Below, piece after piece: positions 1,109-6,361 of a stretch of DNA of 6,394 nt (position 1 is the stretch's first letter; each line of letters begins with the position of its first letter). The stretch lies in the IMG/VR virus record IMGVR_UViG_2690316099_000016; one strand, 5' to 3'. The notes beneath the pieces are model-generated. The model saw only the letters and a list, made by a program, of their open reading frames with translations. It did not search any database and had not been told where the DNA came from. This stretch comes from a virus. Taxonomy: Duplodnaviria; Heunggongvirae; Uroviricota; Caudoviricetes. The position numbers were made by a program, and so were the translations under genes.

Positions 1109-3250
1109 ATGTATGTCATTGCAAAAGAACTGATTGGCGCGCCCGGAATGCCTGCTACAACAAAAGGTATTCGCCAGGCATTACAACGTTACGTACAAGG
1201 GAAAAGCTGTTGTTCCCGTCGTCGCTCAGGCTCTAAAGCAACTGAATACAGCATCGACTGTTTACCTGAAGTGACGCAGCAGGCATTACGTGAACGCTAC
1301 GCCCTGCAACTGATGACGCAAAAAGCCGATGAATCACCGGCTCCGGTGGTGACAAAGGCCAGACGCTCACCTGCCGTGGTTGATGCGGTGGAGGCATATC
1401 GCGGATCACCCCAACTGATGGTCGAACGCCTCAATGCCCTGACTGAAAACCAACGTAAAGTGGCAGAGGCACGAATAGCGATCGTCAGCGAGGTGCTGAA
1501 AATCGCGCAACAACCCGGCTTTAGTTGCGCTAAGGCTATCCGGTTCCTCGTTAACAGCCTGGCACGATCACAACTGGACGAGCGCATTGTGGCAATGGTT
1601 GAGACGGCGAACGCCAAAAAGGGAAACAGCCGCGCGTTGAGTGAAATCACGCTGAAACGCTGGATTGCGGCCTTTAACAAGGCACAGAACGCCGCTGAAC
1701 GCCTGCTTTTACTGGCACCGGGTAAACGCCAGGAAATAAAAGCCGAAGATATTAACTGGCTGCCCGAATTTCTGGCGCAGTATCGCCAGTCAAACGGCCG
1801 ACCAATGACCGAGGCTTACGAGGATTTTGTTGCTGAATGGCAGCACCGGCACGCTGATGAGCCTTATATGCTCGATATCATGCCCTCTTATGACACCATT
1901 CGCCGCGCAATGAAGAAACTGCCGGAAGTGGTGAAACAAAAAGGCCGGGTAACTGGCAGTGAATACCGTCAGCTTGAGGGATTCACGCGCCGCGACTGGT
2001 CCAGAATGCCGGTGAATTATGTCTGGATTGGTGACGGTCACGGCATGAAGCTGAAATGCGCGCACCCGGTTCACGGGCGGCCATTCGCACCGGAAGTGAC
2101 CTTTGTTATCGACGGTGGCACGCGCTTTGTGGTGGGCTGGAGCCTTGACCTGGCTGAAAATGTTTTCGCCGTAGCCGGTGCCATACAGCACGGTATTCGC
2201 CATCATGGCAAACCGTTTCTGTATTACTCGGATAATGGCTCCGGGGAAACCGCCGACGTCCTGGATAAGGAGATTGTGGGGATACTGCCACGACTGGGGA
2301 TTAATCACCCGACAGGGATTGCCGGTAATCCGCAGGGACGGGGCATTATCGAACGGCTTAACCGCACATTACCGATGCGCATAGCCCGTAAATACCGCAC
2401 CTATTTCGGGAAAGGAGCAGATCGCGAGACGTTACGTAAAACCAACCGCGATTTACGCTCGGCATTCAGTGCCCTGCAACAGGGCAAACGGCTGAACGCC
2501 CGGCAGCAGTCAGCGATGCGTGATTTACCGTCCTGGTCTGAACTGATTGATGCCATTCGTGACGGTGTTGAGTGGTACAACAACCGGCCGCACGATGAAT
2601 TACCCATGAAGCCGAACGGTAAACATTACAGCCCGGCGGAGTTCAGAAAAAAACGCCTGGCGGAAGAGGACACGGAAATTGAATGGCTGTCCGATGTTGA
2701 ACTGCGGGATATGTTCCGGCCGATGGTGGAGCGCCCTGTAAGACGCTGTGAAATACGCTGGCTGAATAATATTTACTACGCGCCCGAGCTGCGTGACGAG
2801 CATGGCCGTAAGGTACTTATCAGCTATGACATTCATGATGCCGAACGAATTACCGTGCGCCGCCCGGATGGCAGCGTGATTTGCGAGGCGGTATGGGACG
2901 GCAATAAACGCGAAGCCTTCCCTGTCAGCGCGGAATACTACAAACAGCANNNNNNNNNNNNNNNNNNNNNNNNNNNNNNNNNNNNNNNNNNNNNNNNNNN
3001 NNNNNNNNNNNNNNNNNNNNNNNNNNNNNNNNNNNNNNNNNNNNNNNNNNNNNNNNNNNNNNNNNNNNNNNNNNNNNNNNNNNNNNNNNNNNNNNNNNNN
3101 NNNNNNNNNNNNNNNNNNNNNNNNNNNNNNNNNNNNNNNNNNNNNNNNNNNNNNNNNNNNNNNNNNNNNNNNNNNNNNNNNNNNNNNNNNNNNNNNNNNN
3201 NNNNNNNNNNNNNNNNNNNNNNNNNNNNNNNNNNNNNNNNNNNNNNNNNN
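1109..3250 (+). CDS. A: MuA-like DDE transposase (transposase A); 1109..2949 is readable (613 codons), the 3' end is an estimate inside the masked run
   Basis: ATG at 1109, 1 nt after the ner stop. N-terminus ELIGAPGMPATTKGI...RRSGSKATEYSIDCLPEVTQQAL aligns by eye with MuA domain I-alpha (ECANLPGLPKTSAGVI...GVKGGKAIEYNANSLPVEAKAAL). Putative catalytic triad: D309 in WIGDGHG (codon 2033..2035), D375 in YYSDNGSGE (codon 2231..2233), E415 in GRGIIERLNRTL (codon 2351..2353). The ORF-track continuation to 3682 is a frame artefact across N. Confidence 0.9.
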
Positions 3251-3629
3251 NNNNNNNNNNNNNNNNNNNNNNNNNNNNNNNNNNNNNNNNNNNNNNNNNN
3301 NNNNNNNNNNNNNNNNNNNNNNNNNNNNNNNNNNNNNNNNNNNNNNNNNNNNNNNNNNNNNNNNNNNNNNNNNNNNNNNNNNNNNNNNNNNNNNNNNNNN
3401 NNNNNNNNNNNNNNNNNNNNNNNNNNNNNNNNNNNNNNNNNNNNNNNNNNNNNNNNNNNNNNNNNNNNNNNNNNNNNNNNNNNNNNNNNNNNNNNNNNNN
3501 NNNNNNNNNNNNNNNNNNNNNNNNNNNNNNNNNNNNNNNNNNNNNNNNNNNNNNNNNNNNNNNNNNNNNNNNNNNNNNNNNNNNNNNNNNNNNNNNNNNN
3601 NNNNNNNNNNNNNNNNNNNNNNNNNNNNN
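2950..3629. other. N-masked run (680 nt) covering the 3' end of A and the 5' end of B
   Basis: Uninterrupted run of n characters seen directly. Confidence 1.
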
Positions 3630-4338
3630 GGAAACTCAGACAGTCCAGGAGCTGCGCGCACTGTTTCAGGCGGTTCGCCTGATGGGCTGTATTAACGTTA
3701 TTGTGGGCGTACCGGGTGTGGGTAAAACGGCCACTGCCCGTAATTACTGCCAGGAGCAACCAAACACCTGGATGATCACCCTGTCACCCGCGCACTCCAG
3801 CGTCACGGAGTGTCTGCTGGAGCTGGCCGATGCGCTGGGGATTGATTACACCCGCGCGAACAAAGGGGCATTATCCCGCGCCATCCGCCGTCGCCTGATG
3901 GGAACGCGTGGACTGGTGATTGTGGATGAGGCGGATCATCTTGGTATTGACGGTCTGGAGCAACTCCGGGCAATTCAGGACGCCACGGGGATCGGGATGG
4001 TGCTTATTGGTAACCCGCGCGGATTGTTTAAAGGTGGACGCCGCGCCTTTGATGATTTATCGCGCCTGTTCAGCCGTCTTGCCCGTACAAAACAACTTCG
4101 CAAGGCCAAAAAGGCGGATGTGCTGGCCATTGCCATGGCGTGGGGGATCAGTGGTGAGGCCGAGCTGGCCGTCATGCAGGCTATCGCTGAAAAGCCGGGA
4201 GCGTTACGCGTTCTGACACATACGCTTAACCAGGCGTGGCTCACCGCCAGCGGTGAAGGCGCGGCGCTGACAGAAAAACATATTAATGCGGCCTTTAAAG
4301 AGGTTTATACCAACCCTGAATTACTCTCACAGGTGTGA
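3412..4338 (+). CDS. B: MuB-like AAA+ ATPase, transposition target-DNA activator (protein B); 3630..4338 is readable, the start is an estimate inside the masked run
   Basis: Frame 1 is open from the masked boundary: ETQTVQELRALFQAVRLMGCINVIVGVPGVGKT... matches Mu B (ETQTVKQIWTSMRFASLTESIAVVCGNPGVGKT, from memory). Walker A GVPGVGKT at 3706..3729, Walker B LVIVDEADHL at 3913..3942, and a conserved C-terminal block KKADVLAIAMAWGI...AIAEKPGALRVL. Stop TGA at 4336..4338. The track start at 3682 is an internal Met. Confidence 0.9.
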   Translation, partial: XXXXXXXXXXXXXXXXXXXXXXXXXXXXXXXXXXXXXXXXXXXXXXXXXXXXXXXXXXXXXXXXXXXXXXXXXETQTVQELRALFQAVRLMGCINVIVGVPGVGKTATARNYCQEQPNTWMITLSPAHSSVTECLLELADALGIDYTRANKGALSRAIRRRLMGTRGLVIVDEADHLGIDGLEQLRAIQDATGIGMVLIGNPRGLFKGGRRAFDDLSRLFSRLARTKQLRKAKKADVLAIAMAWGISGEAELAVMQAIAEKPGALRVLTHTLNQAWLTASGEGAALTEKHINAAFKEVYTNPELLSQV

Positions 4339-4340
4339 TT

Positions 4341-4562
4341 ATGGCGGTATTTAATATTCCTGATATTTACGGACGCTTTTACCTGGTTAATTTCGATAAC
4401 GTGAAGGTGATTTCACTGGCCGAAAATAAAGAATGTGGCGATTTACTTTTTGAATTTAATGACCGCACACGAATGGTGATATCTGCCGGACTTGATCGCG
4501 AAGGTGCGACAGAAGTTTACAGCGGAATATGCCGTTCTGTTGGTGCGAAACAAGTCAGCTAA
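4341..4562 (+). CDS. Small hypothetical protein (73 aa) in the position occupied by kil in Mu; function not established
   Basis: ATG at 4341 with AGGTG at 4331..4335 (5-nt spacing), embedded in the last codons of B. Stop TAA at 4560..4562. No recognisable motif; Mu Kil sequence not recalled well enough to align. The track start (GTG 4335) is less likely. Confidence 0.6.
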   Translation: MAVFNIPDIYGRFYLVNFDNVKVISLAENKECGDLLFEFNDRTRMVISAGLDREGATEVYSGICRSVGAKQVS

Positions 4563-4574
4563 ATGAGGTGTTAT

Positions 4575-4829
4575 ATGAATATGCAATCCTGCGGTAACAA
4601 AATGAATTTATTCGACTCCCTGAACAGCGCGCGCCGTCTGACCGAACTTGCCGGTGCGGTACTGGAACGCAGTAAGCGCTATCCGCAACGTTTTGCACTG
4701 AAAACCACGCCGCCGGTAGGCAACGTGCAGGGAACCGGTGAAATTGAAATCACCATACAGACCAACGGCCTGCGCCGCCGTGTGAAGGCCACCCGCATCA
4801 GCGGCTGCACGGTTTACTGGGAGGTGTGA
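4575..4829 (+). CDS. Small hypothetical protein (84 aa), early accessory region
   Basis: ATG at 4575, preceded by GAGGTG at 4565..4570. Alternative in-frame starts are ATG 4563 (immediately after the upstream stop, no SD) and ATG 4581. Stop TGA at 4827..4829. No recognisable domain. Confidence 0.55.
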   Translation: MNMQSCGNKMNLFDSLNSARRLTELAGAVLERSKRYPQRFALKTTPPVGNVQGTGEIEITIQTNGLRRRVKATRISGCTVYWEV

Positions 4830-4830
4830 G

Positions 4831-5112
4831 GTGAAAAAAAATCTCATTGCATGGGCGTGGTCGAGTGGTCTTATTGAGTTTGGTTACGTCCTGCCGGAAG
4901 GTGCATTGCCGATAGTTGCCGGAAAGCCTGCCACGGTACGGCATGTGATTGAGGTTATGGCGCGTCATGGACGTGATGAACAGGAGCAGTTACTGGTTCC
5001 GGGGATACCGGAAGCGGTGACGGAGGAAGAAGCCTTTAATGCCATGATTCGGTTCTGCCGTGAGGTCAGACGCCGGGTCAGTTATCCAAACAGAACGAGG
5101 ACCAGAGGATGA
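4831..5112 (+). CDS. Small hypothetical protein (93 aa) with a basic C-terminal tail, early accessory region
   Basis: GTG start at 4831 with GGAGG at 4819..4823 (7-nt spacing), lying inside the last codons of the upstream ORF. Stop TGA at 5110..5112 overlaps the next ATG (ATGA). No recognisable domain. Confidence 0.55.
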   Translation: MKKNLIAWAWSSGLIEFGYVLPEGALPIVAGKPATVRHVIEVMARHGRDEQEQLLVPGIPEAVTEEEAFNAMIRFCREVRRRVSYPNRTRTRG

Positions 5113-5819
5113 GTAAAGTCGTACACATTATTTTCGAATATAAGGAGCACGTTATCCATAAAAACGCTGATGGAACAGTGCGCATNNNNNNNNNNNNNNN
5201 NNNNNNNNNNNNNNNNNNNNNNNNNNNNNNNNNNNNNNNNNNNNNNNNNNNNNNNNNNNNNNNNNNNNNNNNNNNNNNNNNNNNNNNNNNNNNNNNNNNN
5301 NNNNNNNNNNNNNNNNNNNNNNNNNNNNNNNNNNNNNNNNNNNNNNNNNNNNNNNNNNNNNNNNNNNNNNNNNNNNNNNNNNNNNNNNNNNNNNNNNNNN
5401 NNNNNNNNNNNNNNNNNNNNNNNNNNNNNNNNNNNNNNNNNNNNNNNNNNNNNNNNNNNNNNNNNNNNNNNNNNNNNNNNNNNNNNNNNNNNNNNNNNNN
5501 NNNNNNNNNNNNNNNNNNNNNNNNNNNNNNNNNNNNNNNNNNNNNNNNNNNNNNNNNNNNNNNNNNNNNNNNNNNNNNNNNNNNNNNNNNNNNNNNNNNN
5601 NNNNNNNNNNNNNNNNNNNNNNNNNNNNNNNNNNNNNNNNGTGATACGGAGAACAGACCGACAGGCCCATGTGATGTTTATGCGCAAATTCTTAAATATC
5701 ACAGCCCCACAATTATTCAGTTTCTGACAGATGAACTTCAGGGTTCCATGCAGGCTCTGGGGGTGAAAAGCAGCATTGAGCGCCGCTCCTTGCAGAACGC
5801 ACCAGATACATTGCAATAA
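5109..5819 (+). CDS. Hypothetical protein, about 236 aa if it is a single ORF; the middle 455 nt is masked, so it could be two genes
   Basis: ATG at 5109 overlaps the upstream stop; GAGG at 5097..5100. Readable N-terminus MSKVVHIIFEYKEHVIHKNADGTVR. Readable C-terminus DTENRPTGPCDVYAQILKYHSPTIIQFLTDELQGSMQALGVKSSIERRSLQNAPDTLQ ends at TAA 5817..5819, directly abutting the gam ribosome-binding site. The start frame and stop frame coincide across the N run (1 in 3 by chance), which weakly supports a single ORF. Confidence 0.4.
   Translation: MSKVVHIIFEYKEHVIHKNADGTVRXXXXXXXXXXXXXXXXXXXXXXXXXXXXXXXXXXXXXXXXXXXXXXXXXXXXXXXXXXXXXXXXXXXXXXXXXXXXXXXXXXXXXXXXXXXXXXXXXXXXXXXXXXXXXXXXXXXXXXXXXXXXXXXXXXXXXXXXXXXXXXXXXXXXXXXXXDTENRPTGPCDVYAQILKYHSPTIIQFLTDELQGSMQALGVKSSIERRSLQNAPDTLQ
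5186..5640. other. N-masked run (455 nt) inside the largest accessory ORF
   Basis: Uninterrupted run of n characters seen directly. Confidence 1.
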
Positions 5820-5830
5820 GGAAAAACAAA

Positions 5831-6361
5831 ATGGCAAAACGCGTTACAAAATTAAAGGCTGTAGCCGAGGCCGCACCGCAGACCCGCGAAGAAGTCAGCC
5901 GCGATATCCGCACCCTGGGCGATATTCAGCGAGAGGCGCTGCGCCTGGAAACGGCGATGAATGATGAAGTGGCAGAAATCACCGCCCGTTATACGCCGCA
6001 GATTGAAAATCTTAAAAAGCAAATCAAAGTGCTTTTTAAAGGGATTCAGGACTGGTGTAAAACCAACCGTGATGAGCTGACGAACGGCGGCAAAACCAAA
6101 ACTGCCAATCTGACCACCGGAACGGTGTCATGGCGGCTGGGAACGCCATCATGCAGCGTCAGCCGTGATGTGGAAGGTGTGATTGACACGCTGCGCCGTA
6201 TGGGGCTTGAGCGATTCATCCGCACGAAAGAGGAAGTGAACAAGGAAGCCGTCCTGGCGGAGCCGGATGCGGTGAAAGGCATTGCCGGTATAAAGGTGAA
6301 TAAAGGCGCTGAAAGTTTTTATGTCGAGCCTTTTGAACAGGATGCCGGACTGAATAAATAA
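5831..6361 (+). CDS. gam: Host-nuclease inhibitor protein Gam (Mu Gam / Ku-like DNA-end binding), 176 aa
   Basis: ATG at 5831 with AAGGA at 5818..5822. The protein MAKRVTKLKAVAEAAPQTREEVSRDIRTLGDIQREALRLETAMNDEVAEI...CKTNRDELTNGGKTKTANLTTGTVSWR...LERFIRTKEEVNKEAVLAEP...EPFEQDAG aligns closely by eye with Mu Gam (...IGDLQREASRLETEMNDAIAEI...ANRDELTNGGKVKTANLVTGDVSWR...LQRFIRTKQEINKEAILLEP...PFEQEAG, from memory). Stop TAA at 6359..6361. Confidence 0.9.
   Translation: MAKRVTKLKAVAEAAPQTREEVSRDIRTLGDIQREALRLETAMNDEVAEITARYTPQIENLKKQIKVLFKGIQDWCKTNRDELTNGGKTKTANLTTGTVSWRLGTPSCSVSRDVEGVIDTLRRMGLERFIRTKEEVNKEAVLAEPDAVKGIAGIKVNKGAESFYVEPFEQDAGLNK

Follow-up and report, generated by a model that had tools for sequence, protein, structure and literature searches.

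The window analyzed, that is, the whole stretch of 6,394 nucleotides of viral DNA (IMG/VR record IMGVR_UViG_2690316099_000016), carries A, B, five small open reading frames (ORFs) and gam, in this order and all on the + strand, with a repressor gene and ner preceding A. The upstream boundary of the slot between B and gam is the 3′ part of B (3682..4338, + strand), the transposition ATPase, whose 5′ part is masked. Over 300 aa, B shares 48% identity with Mu B, and RefSeq lists it as a 310-aa AAA family ATPase. The downstream boundary is gam (5831..6361, + strand), encoding a Mu Gam-like DNA-end binding protein (PF07352, E 7e-42) that shares 57% identity with Mu Gam. The prophage probably belongs to the Sp18 type described in E. 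coli O157 Sakai. Mu-like prophages of this kind are common in E. coli.

Between the B stop at 4338 and the gam ATG at 5831, the gap is packed with same-strand ORFs, and five slot genes of 73, 84, 93, 90 and 97 aa were recognized, with spacers of at most 12 nt; the tight packing noted in the first-pass annotation is thus real. ORF1 (4341..4562, + strand, 73 aa) encodes an acidic (pI 4.9), soluble protein belonging to phrog_3375, a family listed with function unknown. It is followed after 12 nt by ORF2 (4575..4829, + strand, 84 aa), which encodes a basic protein (pI 10.3) distantly assigned to the Kil family, and, after 1 nt more, by ORF3 (4831..5112, + strand, 93 aa), a member of phrog_1518 with a GTG start. 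The ATG of ORF4 (5109) overlaps the ORF3 stop as ATGA. The visible 5′ end of this gene spans 25 codons (5109..5185, + strand; phrog_4107, pI 9.2), and the real gene, of 273 nt and 90 aa, ends within a mask of 455 N (5186..5640) that stands for 315 real nt. The 3′ end of ORF5 is visible after the mask (5641..5819, + strand; phrog_2230, pI 5.5); this gene has 294 nt and 97 aa in reality, and stops at 5819, 11 nt short of gam.

The slot ORFs carry RefSeq gene annotation, and the five exact proteins were all present in public collections, several of them on at least 1000 contigs. Their database names are hypothetical, with the exception of the label given to ORF3 and a single "Kil protein family" tag for ORF2. 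By eye, motifs resembling GGAGG/AGGTG can be read ahead of the start codons of ORF2 and ORF3. Neither a sigma-70-like promoter nor a + strand terminator was found in the real B-to-gam sequence, and no Rfam match was found for the slot. From the sequence of the window, four ORFs of 73, 84, 93 and about 236 aa had originally been proposed. The first three stand as RefSeq-annotated genes, while the fourth is in fact two genes, which gives five in total.

The separation of ORF4 and ORF5 was derived from the unmasked sequence of relatives. The window contains three runs of N (420, 680 and 455 N). In E. coli JKHS016, whose flanks are 99.8–100% identical to the window and 100% identical around the third mask, they correspond to 321, 556 and 315 nt. 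The three masks are padded by differing amounts and, therefore, mask length does not keep the reading frame. When 3–4 mismatches were permitted, the flanks of the third mask were matched in nine loci, three of which were checked at 100% identity, and the spacing was exactly 315 nt in all nine. These 315 nt comprise the last two-thirds of ORF4, a TAA stop, a 4-nt spacer and an ATG with the first 38 codons of ORF5, this new ATG being in another frame than ORF4. The products of the JKHS016 sequence are proteins of 90 aa (WP_000049397.1) and 97 aa (WP_000049308.1). RefSeq places two genes at this position in hundreds of genomes, no fused form was found among roughly 40 window-type loci, and no slot ORF of the ORF4/ORF5 family longer than 140 aa was present in the 83 loci compared. 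To judge from the identical flanks, the 236-aa ORF of the window is an artefact joining two adjacent genes, in which the start of ORF4 and the final part of ORF5 fall into one frame by chance, through the padding of the mask. That the last ORF encodes one large novel protein across the mask, as suggested in the masked window by an ATG (5109) and a stop (5817–5819) that share one frame, is hardly credible against the unequal padding of all three masks, the constant spacing in the flank-matched loci, the stop and restart in a different frame in JKHS016, and the two separate RefSeq genes.

The slot ORFs are real genes. The dN/dS values indicated purifying selection: they were between 0 and 0.45 across the slot genes where substitutions allowed the calculation, with 0.23–0.45 for ORF1, ORF4 and ORF5 and 0–0.14 for ORF2, ORF3 and gam. 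It is very improbable that some of these small ORFs are non-functional, either as conserved filler or as decaying prophage remnants. Such a reading would agree with slot proteins that have no domain or structural match and with the deletions or chimeras at loci L018, L028, L039 and L049, but ORF lengths and frames are kept across more than 200 genomes, and dN/dS is well under 1 even for alleles with dS of about 0.8–0.9. Also against it, the slot starts are tightly coupled to the preceding stops, with the motifs ahead of ORF2 and ORF3 mentioned above, and separate phage lineages have homologues in this slot.

Scans of all five slot proteins with Pfam, NCBIfam and PADLOC gave nothing credible, and no PADLOC family was detected for any of the five at E values up to 1. 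No sequence match in the PDB was found for ORF1, ORF3, ORF4 and ORF5 in single-sequence searches, or for the ORF3 and gp7 families in profile searches. Homology searches with ORF5 and ORF3 recovered close E. coli relatives only, so that structures had to be predicted from shallow alignments. AlphaFold2 yielded an unusable model for ORF3 (pLDDT 47.7) and a β-hairpin plus helix for the ORF5 type (pLDDT 65). Foldseek comparison of these weak models with the PDB and BFVD gave nothing at E ≤0.001. An anti-defence role, raised earlier for slots of this kind, gained no support from these scans, which do not speak against it either. The earlier statement that none of the slot ORFs shows an assignable motif was too negative, since ORF2 resembles Kil, ORF4 and ORF5 resemble gp7, and ORF3 falls in a wide phage family.

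ORF1 is a lineage-restricted ORFan. Only about five small relatives (45–57% identity) were found among 1.84 billion representative proteins, and its matches to proteins of 534–1724 aa were discarded as repeat or low-complexity artefacts. Its dN/dS against a divergent allele was 0.23, and it occupies the gp6 position in some Mu-type phages.

A kil-type gene, such as the first-pass annotation named for this region of Mu, is probably represented here by ORF2. This protein matched phrog_2679, annotated as "Kil" (E 6.6e-46), and also phrog_2743, the family of Mu Kil (E 9e-4); reciprocally, Mu Kil matched phrog_2679 (E 9e-5). In direct comparison, BLASTP gave 33% identity (E 1e-4) across 39 aa at the C-terminus, and hhalign gave E 1e-3 with a probability of only 21%. 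One NCBI record names ORF2 "Kil protein family." Like Mu Kil (gp5; phrog_2743), ORF2 is small, basic (pI ~10.2–10.3 in both) and located early in the operon after B, and the two proteins have in common the C-terminal motif (R/K)xVxxxRxxGCx(I/V)xW. By contrast, ORF2 is second and not first in its slot, is 10 aa longer, and is similar to Mu Kil only in the C-terminal half, the N-terminal half being unrelated. By its sequence, ORF2 is probably related, though distantly, to Mu Kil. Expression of Mu kil leads to spherical cells (PMC3961180, citing Waggoner 1989), a phenotype with which the "septation inhibition" wording of PHROG is at odds. ORF2 is predicted to be the host-killing factor of the phage that disrupts cell shape.

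ORF3 belongs to a family (phrog_1518) that is widespread in transposable phages, with 76 phage records in total. It is 43–50% identical, over 74–83 aa, to DMS3-12, JBD5_014 and BcepMigl gp54, and 26 positions are invariant in the family, including W10, SGLI, RH and LLVPGxPEA. Its nucleotide identity is at least 99% in 202 of 230 E. coli records. Seven plasmid records also contain ORF3, probably as prophage insertions, with no leading-region context. Like the members of the DMS3-12/JBD5_014/BcepMigl gp54 family, ORF3 is an early-region gene near gam. The family gene adjoins gam in Pseudomonas transposable phages; the DMS3-type homologue lies immediately downstream of gam, whereas ORF3 lies two genes upstream of it.

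In PHROGs, NCBI and UniRef, proteins of the ORF3 type are labelled "host nuclease inhibitor." This label is unfounded, because its source is a fusion by a 1-nt frameshift in the gam record of D3112 (NP_938220), where a one-base deletion relative to DMS3, in DNA that is 99.25% identical, makes gam continue in the reading frame of the gene that follows. It is only through this frameshift that D3112 joins a Gam domain to an ORF3-like part. A true role of ORF3 as a host-nuclease inhibitor or Gam partner, shielding the Mu DNA ends from RecBCD, is quite unlikely. Besides the name itself, the positions right downstream of gam in DMS3-type phages, at most two genes from gam in the window, and directly before gam in one enterobacterial locus (L084) would fit such a role. 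However, the name derives from the frameshifted record, the Gam domain (PF07352) is absent from ORF3 and from BcepMigl gp54 in Pfam searches, and ORF3 has no similarity to Gam. Moreover, the podophage BcepMigl has a family member with no gam nearby, and many window-type prophages keep gam and lack ORF3.

ORF5 is a clear member of phrog_2230 (E 4e-37), the family of the gp7′ proteins of Mu-type phages, with which it was aligned by hhalign at 99.9% probability (E 7e-32). The gp7′ proteins were in turn aligned with Mu gp7 (phrog_10252) at 91.8% (E 7e-7). ORF4, the more distant relative, was aligned with ORF5 at 80% (E 1.4e-5, 71 columns) and with ORF5 plus gp7′ at 82.5% (E 1e-5, 76 columns), these ORF4–ORF5 and gp7 profile links (80–92% probability) resting on shallow alignments, with the ORF4 link as the weakest. 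ORF4, ORF5, Mu gp7 and gp7′ are all of 85–97 aa, start with M(A/S)KV-hydrophobic-x-E and have in common a central GPxD...A..I....P.II segment; the alignments are collinear and almost free of gaps. The profile similarity runs over the full length, and slot and size are the same. ORF4 and ORF5 are probably tandem paralogues within the uncharacterised Mu gp7 (E6) family, two copies of opposite charge (ORF4 pI 9.2, ORF5 pI 5.5) standing where Mu has one. After Kil and Gam, no family occurs more constantly in the enterobacterial Mu-like slot than this superfamily, which has no Pfam entry or structure.

ORF5 exists in two forms. Its nucleotide identity across E. coli was at least 90% in 32 records versus 60–80% in 201, and the two allele classes are about 60% identical in protein (median 61%), compared with 97–100% for neighboring genes. 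Likewise, dS was 0.76–0.92 for ORF5 versus 0–0.11 for the genes flanking it in the same prophage. Two such ancient classes of alleles suggest that ORF5 meets a variable partner. Positive selection on ORF5 was rejected, as pairwise dN/dS was 0.3–0.4 and not above 1; therefore, the dimorphism could equally be explained by recombination with another phage lineage together with relaxed constraint. A more specific proposal is that basic ORF4 and acidic ORF5 form a specificity cassette, expressed early and binding, perhaps as a heterodimer, a host factor that varies, for instance a defence system, with balancing selection keeping both ORF5 classes in E. coli prophages. We regard this proposal as speculative and rather improbable.

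Another alternative is that ORF4 and ORF5 are directed to the phage itself, as accessory factors for replicative transposition or early-operon regulation, and not to the host or its defences. The family is constant in the enterobacterial Mu-like slot, always alongside transposition genes, and the Mu semi-essential early (SEE) region includes functions that boost replication, such as arm, both of which count for this alternative. Nevertheless, it appears unlikely: a partner of the conserved A and B, which are 98–100% identical between prophages, is not expected to occur as two allele classes of ~60% identity, locus L018 has no ORF4, and the Mu SE region is dispensable for integration (PMC3325207).

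The gene content of the B-to-gam slot was compared across related phages, and it is variable. The 83 loci displayed at least 17 slot arrangements built from about nine small-gene families, including two Kil types, and natural slot variants without ORF3 and/or ORF4 exist. Single-linkage clustering joined ORF1 with ORF3 and ORF2 with gp8; these groupings were rejected as not reflecting homology, since the links came from a natural chimera at L039, from a fusion at L028 and from ORF calls extended upstream.

In Mu, five tightly packed genes (kil/gp5, gp6, gp7, gp8, and gp9) likewise run from B to gam in the same orientation, and their products, of 74–139 aa, are similar in size to the 73–97 aa of the slot proteins. 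In both slots, a kil-like gene is close to B, and the central part includes one of the gp7 type. Of the five Mu families, however, only Kil and gp7 are common to the slot of the window, and distantly so; gp6, gp8, and gp9 are missing, with ORF1 and ORF3 in their stead. In the window-type prophage, a SANT/Myb gene resembling gp9 is present outside the slot, downstream of gam. A literature search on Mu gp6–gp9 or the DMS3-12 family returned nothing.

The slot corresponds to the start of the Mu SEE region: it lies downstream of A and B in the same orientation, abuts gam and consists of short, packed, lineage-variable genes. The SEE region has been described as a long, poorly conserved series of small genes without known function (PMC8705779, PMC3325207), and deletion of the Mu SE region makes infected cells viable again (PMC3325207). 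By position, homologies and these descriptions, the initial view of the slot as an accessory, uncharacterised part of the early operon of a Mu-like phage was correct. Taken as a whole, 4341–5819 is likely the promoter-proximal part of the SEE region of a Mu-like prophage, with five small genes, of which ORF2 would be Kil-like and ORF4 and ORF5 of the gp7 type. Given the tight packing and the lack of an internal promoter or terminator, we infer that five small cytoplasmic proteins would most likely be translated, upon infection or induction, from the long early transcript that also encodes A, B, and Gam. ORF1, ORF3, ORF4, and ORF5 are predicted to bind host proteins stoichiometrically and to improve lytic growth in this way, as small agents of host takeover.

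The main value of this analysis is a correction, since the large novel ORF is dropped and the runs of N in windows of this kind do not preserve the reading frame. Additionally, the name "host nuclease inhibitor" of ORF3-type proteins has no basis other than the frameshifted D3112 record. The grouping of Mu gp7 (E6), ORF4, and ORF5 in what is probably one superfamily makes them a sensible first target for dissecting the SEE region. Moreover, the sharp dimorphism of ORF5 in near-identical prophages is a pattern known from specificity or arms-race genes. If ORF4 and ORF5 did prove to be a specificity cassette, Mu gp7 (E6) would found a new anti-defence or host-targeting family.

The stretch at 4341-5819, between B and gam, was recognized as the start of the semi-essential early (SEE) region of a Mu-like prophage that is common in E. 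coli. The window, 6.4 kb in all, covers the left (early) end of this prophage. The repressor gene lies on the minus strand (38 to ~570), its homologue bearing no more than a hypothetical-protein annotation; then come ner, transposase A and ATPase B, the latter ending at 4338, and after the B-to-gam slot comes gam (5831-6361), whose product matched Pfam Phage_Mu_Gam at 7e-42. B and Gam were 48% and 57% identical to the phage Mu proteins, respectively. The same DNA was found in 232 of 5,426 complete E. coli genomes, including O157:H7, O121 and O103 strains, and was nearly always chromosomal. Since O157:H7 strains are among the carriers and Sp18 is the sole Mu-like prophage in O157 Sakai (PMC2669165), the phage is probably of the Sp18 type. 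In E. coli JKHS016 (NZ_CP147059.1) the left end of the prophage (598-1492 of the fetched locus L001; 919089-919983 of the genome) abuts a truncated JAB/RadC-like gene that belongs to a CP4-44-type island with the cbeA antitoxin and DUF987; such a junction fits insertion at random by transposition.

The first-pass annotation had placed four ORFs of 73, 84, 93 and about 236 aa in the slot, the last one partly masked. The coordinates of the first three were confirmed: ORF1 (4341-4562, 73 aa), ORF2 (4575-4829, 84 aa, after a 12-nt spacer) and ORF3 (4831-5112, 93 aa, with a GTG start after a 1-nt spacer). The fourth is instead two genes of 90 and 97 aa in unmasked relatives. The JKHS016 genome was 99.8-100% identical to all four visible segments of the window, where 420 N (588-1007), 680 N (2950-3629) and 455 N (5186-5640) stand for only 321, 556 and 315 nt of its sequence. 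As every mask overstates the length of the underlying DNA, reading frames and distances across them are meaningless. The third gap was exactly 315 nt in nine of nine fetched loci with matching flanks (3-4 mismatches tolerated). Its real sequence contains the end of the 90-aa gene, TAA, four bases and the ATG of the 97-aa gene in a different frame (RefSeq WP_000049397.1 and WP_000049308.1), so that two small genes were obtained in place of a single ORF, an outcome for which the annotation itself had allowed. The ~236-aa ORF was therefore rejected as a mask artefact; the single-frame appearance of 5109-5819 is a chance product of the padded mask joining two gene halves. Among 83 related loci, no ORF4/ORF5-family ORF exceeded 140 aa, longer calls being due only to upstream-extended start codons. 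The same effect accounts for an apparent 857-aa "A" ORF (1109-3682), in which a mask links A to B.

The slot totals five genes of 73, 84, 93, 90 and 97 aa; the start of ORF4 overlaps the ORF3 stop (ATGA) and ORF5 stops 11 nt before gam. All five exact proteins were already in public collections, several on at least 1,000 E. coli and Shigella sonnei contigs, and pairwise dN/dS was 0-0.45 wherever substitutions existed, even with dS of ~0.8-0.9. Therefore, all five are real genes, whose sequences were known beforehand. No sigma-70-like promoter or plus-strand terminator was detected between B and gam in the real sequence, which fits one putative early transcript, as in Mu, and no Rfam match was obtained there. 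The five proteins lack hydrophobic segments of membrane-span length and gave zero matches in Pfam, NCBIfam and PADLOC scans. No credible PDB match was found by sequence (ORF1, ORF3, ORF4 and ORF5) or by profile (ORF3 and the gp7 families). Apart from the ORF3 label and a single record that calls ORF2 "Kil protein family", their public names are hypothetical.

ORF5 belongs to the phage protein family phrog_2230 (4e-37) and ORF4 to phrog_4107. At the position of gp7 (the Mu E6 protein), Mu-type prophages carry one of two genes, that of Mu gp7 (phrog_10252) or that of the variant gp7' (phrog_2230). Profile-profile comparison matched ORF5 to gp7' (99.9%, E 7e-32, 87 columns), gp7 to gp7' (91.8%, E 7e-7, 75 columns) and to ORF5 plus gp7' (87.9%, E 3e-6, 75 columns), and ORF4 to ORF5 (80%, E 1.4e-5, 71 columns) and to ORF5 plus gp7' (82.5%, E 1e-5, 76 columns). 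All four types are 85-97 aa long, begin with M(A/S)KV-hydrophobic-x-E and align collinearly, with a common central GPxD...P.II segment. These scores and shared features argue for ORF4 and ORF5 being tandem paralogues in the gp7 superfamily, with moderate support for the ORF4 link. An ORF5-type structure model from a shallow alignment was of borderline quality (pLDDT 65); it showed a beta-hairpin at the N terminus and a helix at the C terminus, and matched nothing in PDB or BFVD.

The most interesting feature of the region, although it gives no function, is the dimorphism of ORF5. In 35 window-type IMG/VR loci, median amino acid identity to the window was 99% for B, 97% for ORF1, 100% for ORF2, 99% for ORF3, 91% for ORF4 and 97% for Gam, but 61% for ORF5. 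ORF4 showed a local hot spot at codons ~14-30. ORF5 (window 5641-5819 and L001 6087-6380) has two classes that share ~60% amino acid and ~71% nucleotide identity, against 97-100% in neighbouring genes. In complete E. coli genomes, ORF5 DNA was at least 90% identical to the window in 32 records and 60-80% identical in 201, so the window carries the minority class; for ORF3, 202 of 230 records reached 99% identity or more. Recent positive selection as the source of the classes was rejected: in one prophage with ORF1-ORF3 DNA 99.6-100% identical to the window, ORF5 nevertheless showed a dS of 0.92 and a dN/dS of 0.32. Such a dS amid near-identical neighbours indicates that the ORF5 alleles are old and have been swapped by recombination.

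No assignable motif had been reported in any of the four original ORFs, but ORF2 matched Kil families: phrog_2679 ("Kil") at 6.6e-46 and phrog_2743 (the Mu Kil family) at 9e-4, while Mu Kil matched phrog_2679 at 9e-5 in the reverse search. In BLASTP, ORF2 shared 33% identity with Mu Kil across its C-terminal 39 residues (E 1e-4), each of the two proteins is basic (pI ~10.2), and hhalign aligned the same C-terminal motif, with a probability of just 21%. Taken together, these matches make ORF2 a probable distant relative of Kil. The PHROG text for the Mu-type families 2679, 2743 and 6381, "Kil protein for bacterial septation inhibition", is loose, since Mu kil expression gives spherical, not filamentous, cells, an elongation defect, according to the statement in PMC3961180 that cites Waggoner 1989. 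The Kil proteins of Mu, lambda and Rac are mutually unrelated (PMC3961180). ORF1 is an ORFan: an exhaustive HMMER search against 1.84 billion representative proteins retrieved only ~5 small relatives (74-84 aa, 45-57% identity), matches to large proteins being dismissed as repeat artefacts. It takes the place of gp6 in a few Mu-type phages, and a second allele was seen at 75-81%.

A gene with 43-50% identity to ORF3 occurs in 76 phage records, mostly from Pseudomonas transposable phages (DMS3-12, JBD5_014 and the D3112 group), with members in Burkholderia phages BcepMigl and KL4 and in Stenotrophomonas phages; 26 positions are invariant. Many of these genes are named "host nuclease inhibitor", as in PHROG 1518 and NCBI/UniRef. 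The D3112 "gam" CDS (NC_005178.1; D3112p13, L107 2976-3776) encodes 266 aa, with a Gam domain followed by an ORF3-like tail. The DNA of this CDS is 99.25% identical to DMS3, from which it differs by a one-base deletion at column 465 that makes gam run on in the reading frame of its neighbour, whereas both genes are separate in DMS3, JBD5 and PA38/1329. The label thus appears to have propagated from the frameshifted D3112 record, the family itself being unrelated to Gam. ORF3 itself lacks a Gam domain and gave no Pfam or PDB match, and a role as a nuclease inhibitor is unlikely. Its structure model, from a shallow alignment, was unusable (pLDDT 48). The neighbourhood with gam is kept in distant transposable phages, a weak hint of a shared early role.

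Moreover, the slot varies across relatives, as the first-pass annotation had wondered, although the pool is small: when family HMMs were used to sort the slot ORFs in 83 B-to-gam loci, at least 17 arrangements emerged, made up of ~9 families (two Kil types, the gp7 superfamily, ORF1, gp6, ORF3, gp8 and gp9). The gp7 superfamily occurs in one or two copies in nearly every enterobacterial arrangement. Window-type variants have a Mu-gp8-like gene in place of ORF3 or have ORF3 deleted. The rearrangements include an in-frame ORF1/ORF3 chimera (L039 3171-3422), a 210-aa gp8-like/ORF2 fusion (L028 2712-3344), ORF5 directly behind ORF2 without ORF3 and ORF4 (L018 3355-3989) and truncated ORF4 and ORF5 (L049), which suggests that carriage of the prophage, at least, requires neither ORF3 nor ORF4. 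In Mu the slot likewise holds five genes (kil, gp6, gp7, gp8 and gp9). Mu has gp9 upstream of gam, whereas in this phage type a Mu gp9-like gene for a SANT/Myb-type DNA-binding protein lies downstream (L001 8618-9169), the same families thus being shuffled on both sides of gam. This variability agrees with descriptions of the SEE region as long and poorly conserved, with small genes of unknown function (PMC8705779), and with the restored viability of infected cells upon deletion of the Mu semi-essential region (PMC3325207).

The slot has no large novel ORF, and its interest is low to moderate. By homology, it contains one Kil-like gene, two probable gp7-like paralogues, one ORFan and one member of a family that is widespread but mislabelled. 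Gene anatomy and homologies are what is shown, and all functions are inferred; the most likely role is host takeover, in which an early transcript would supply small proteins that bind host targets. ORF2 would then act as the killing factor and ORF5 would face a variable partner.
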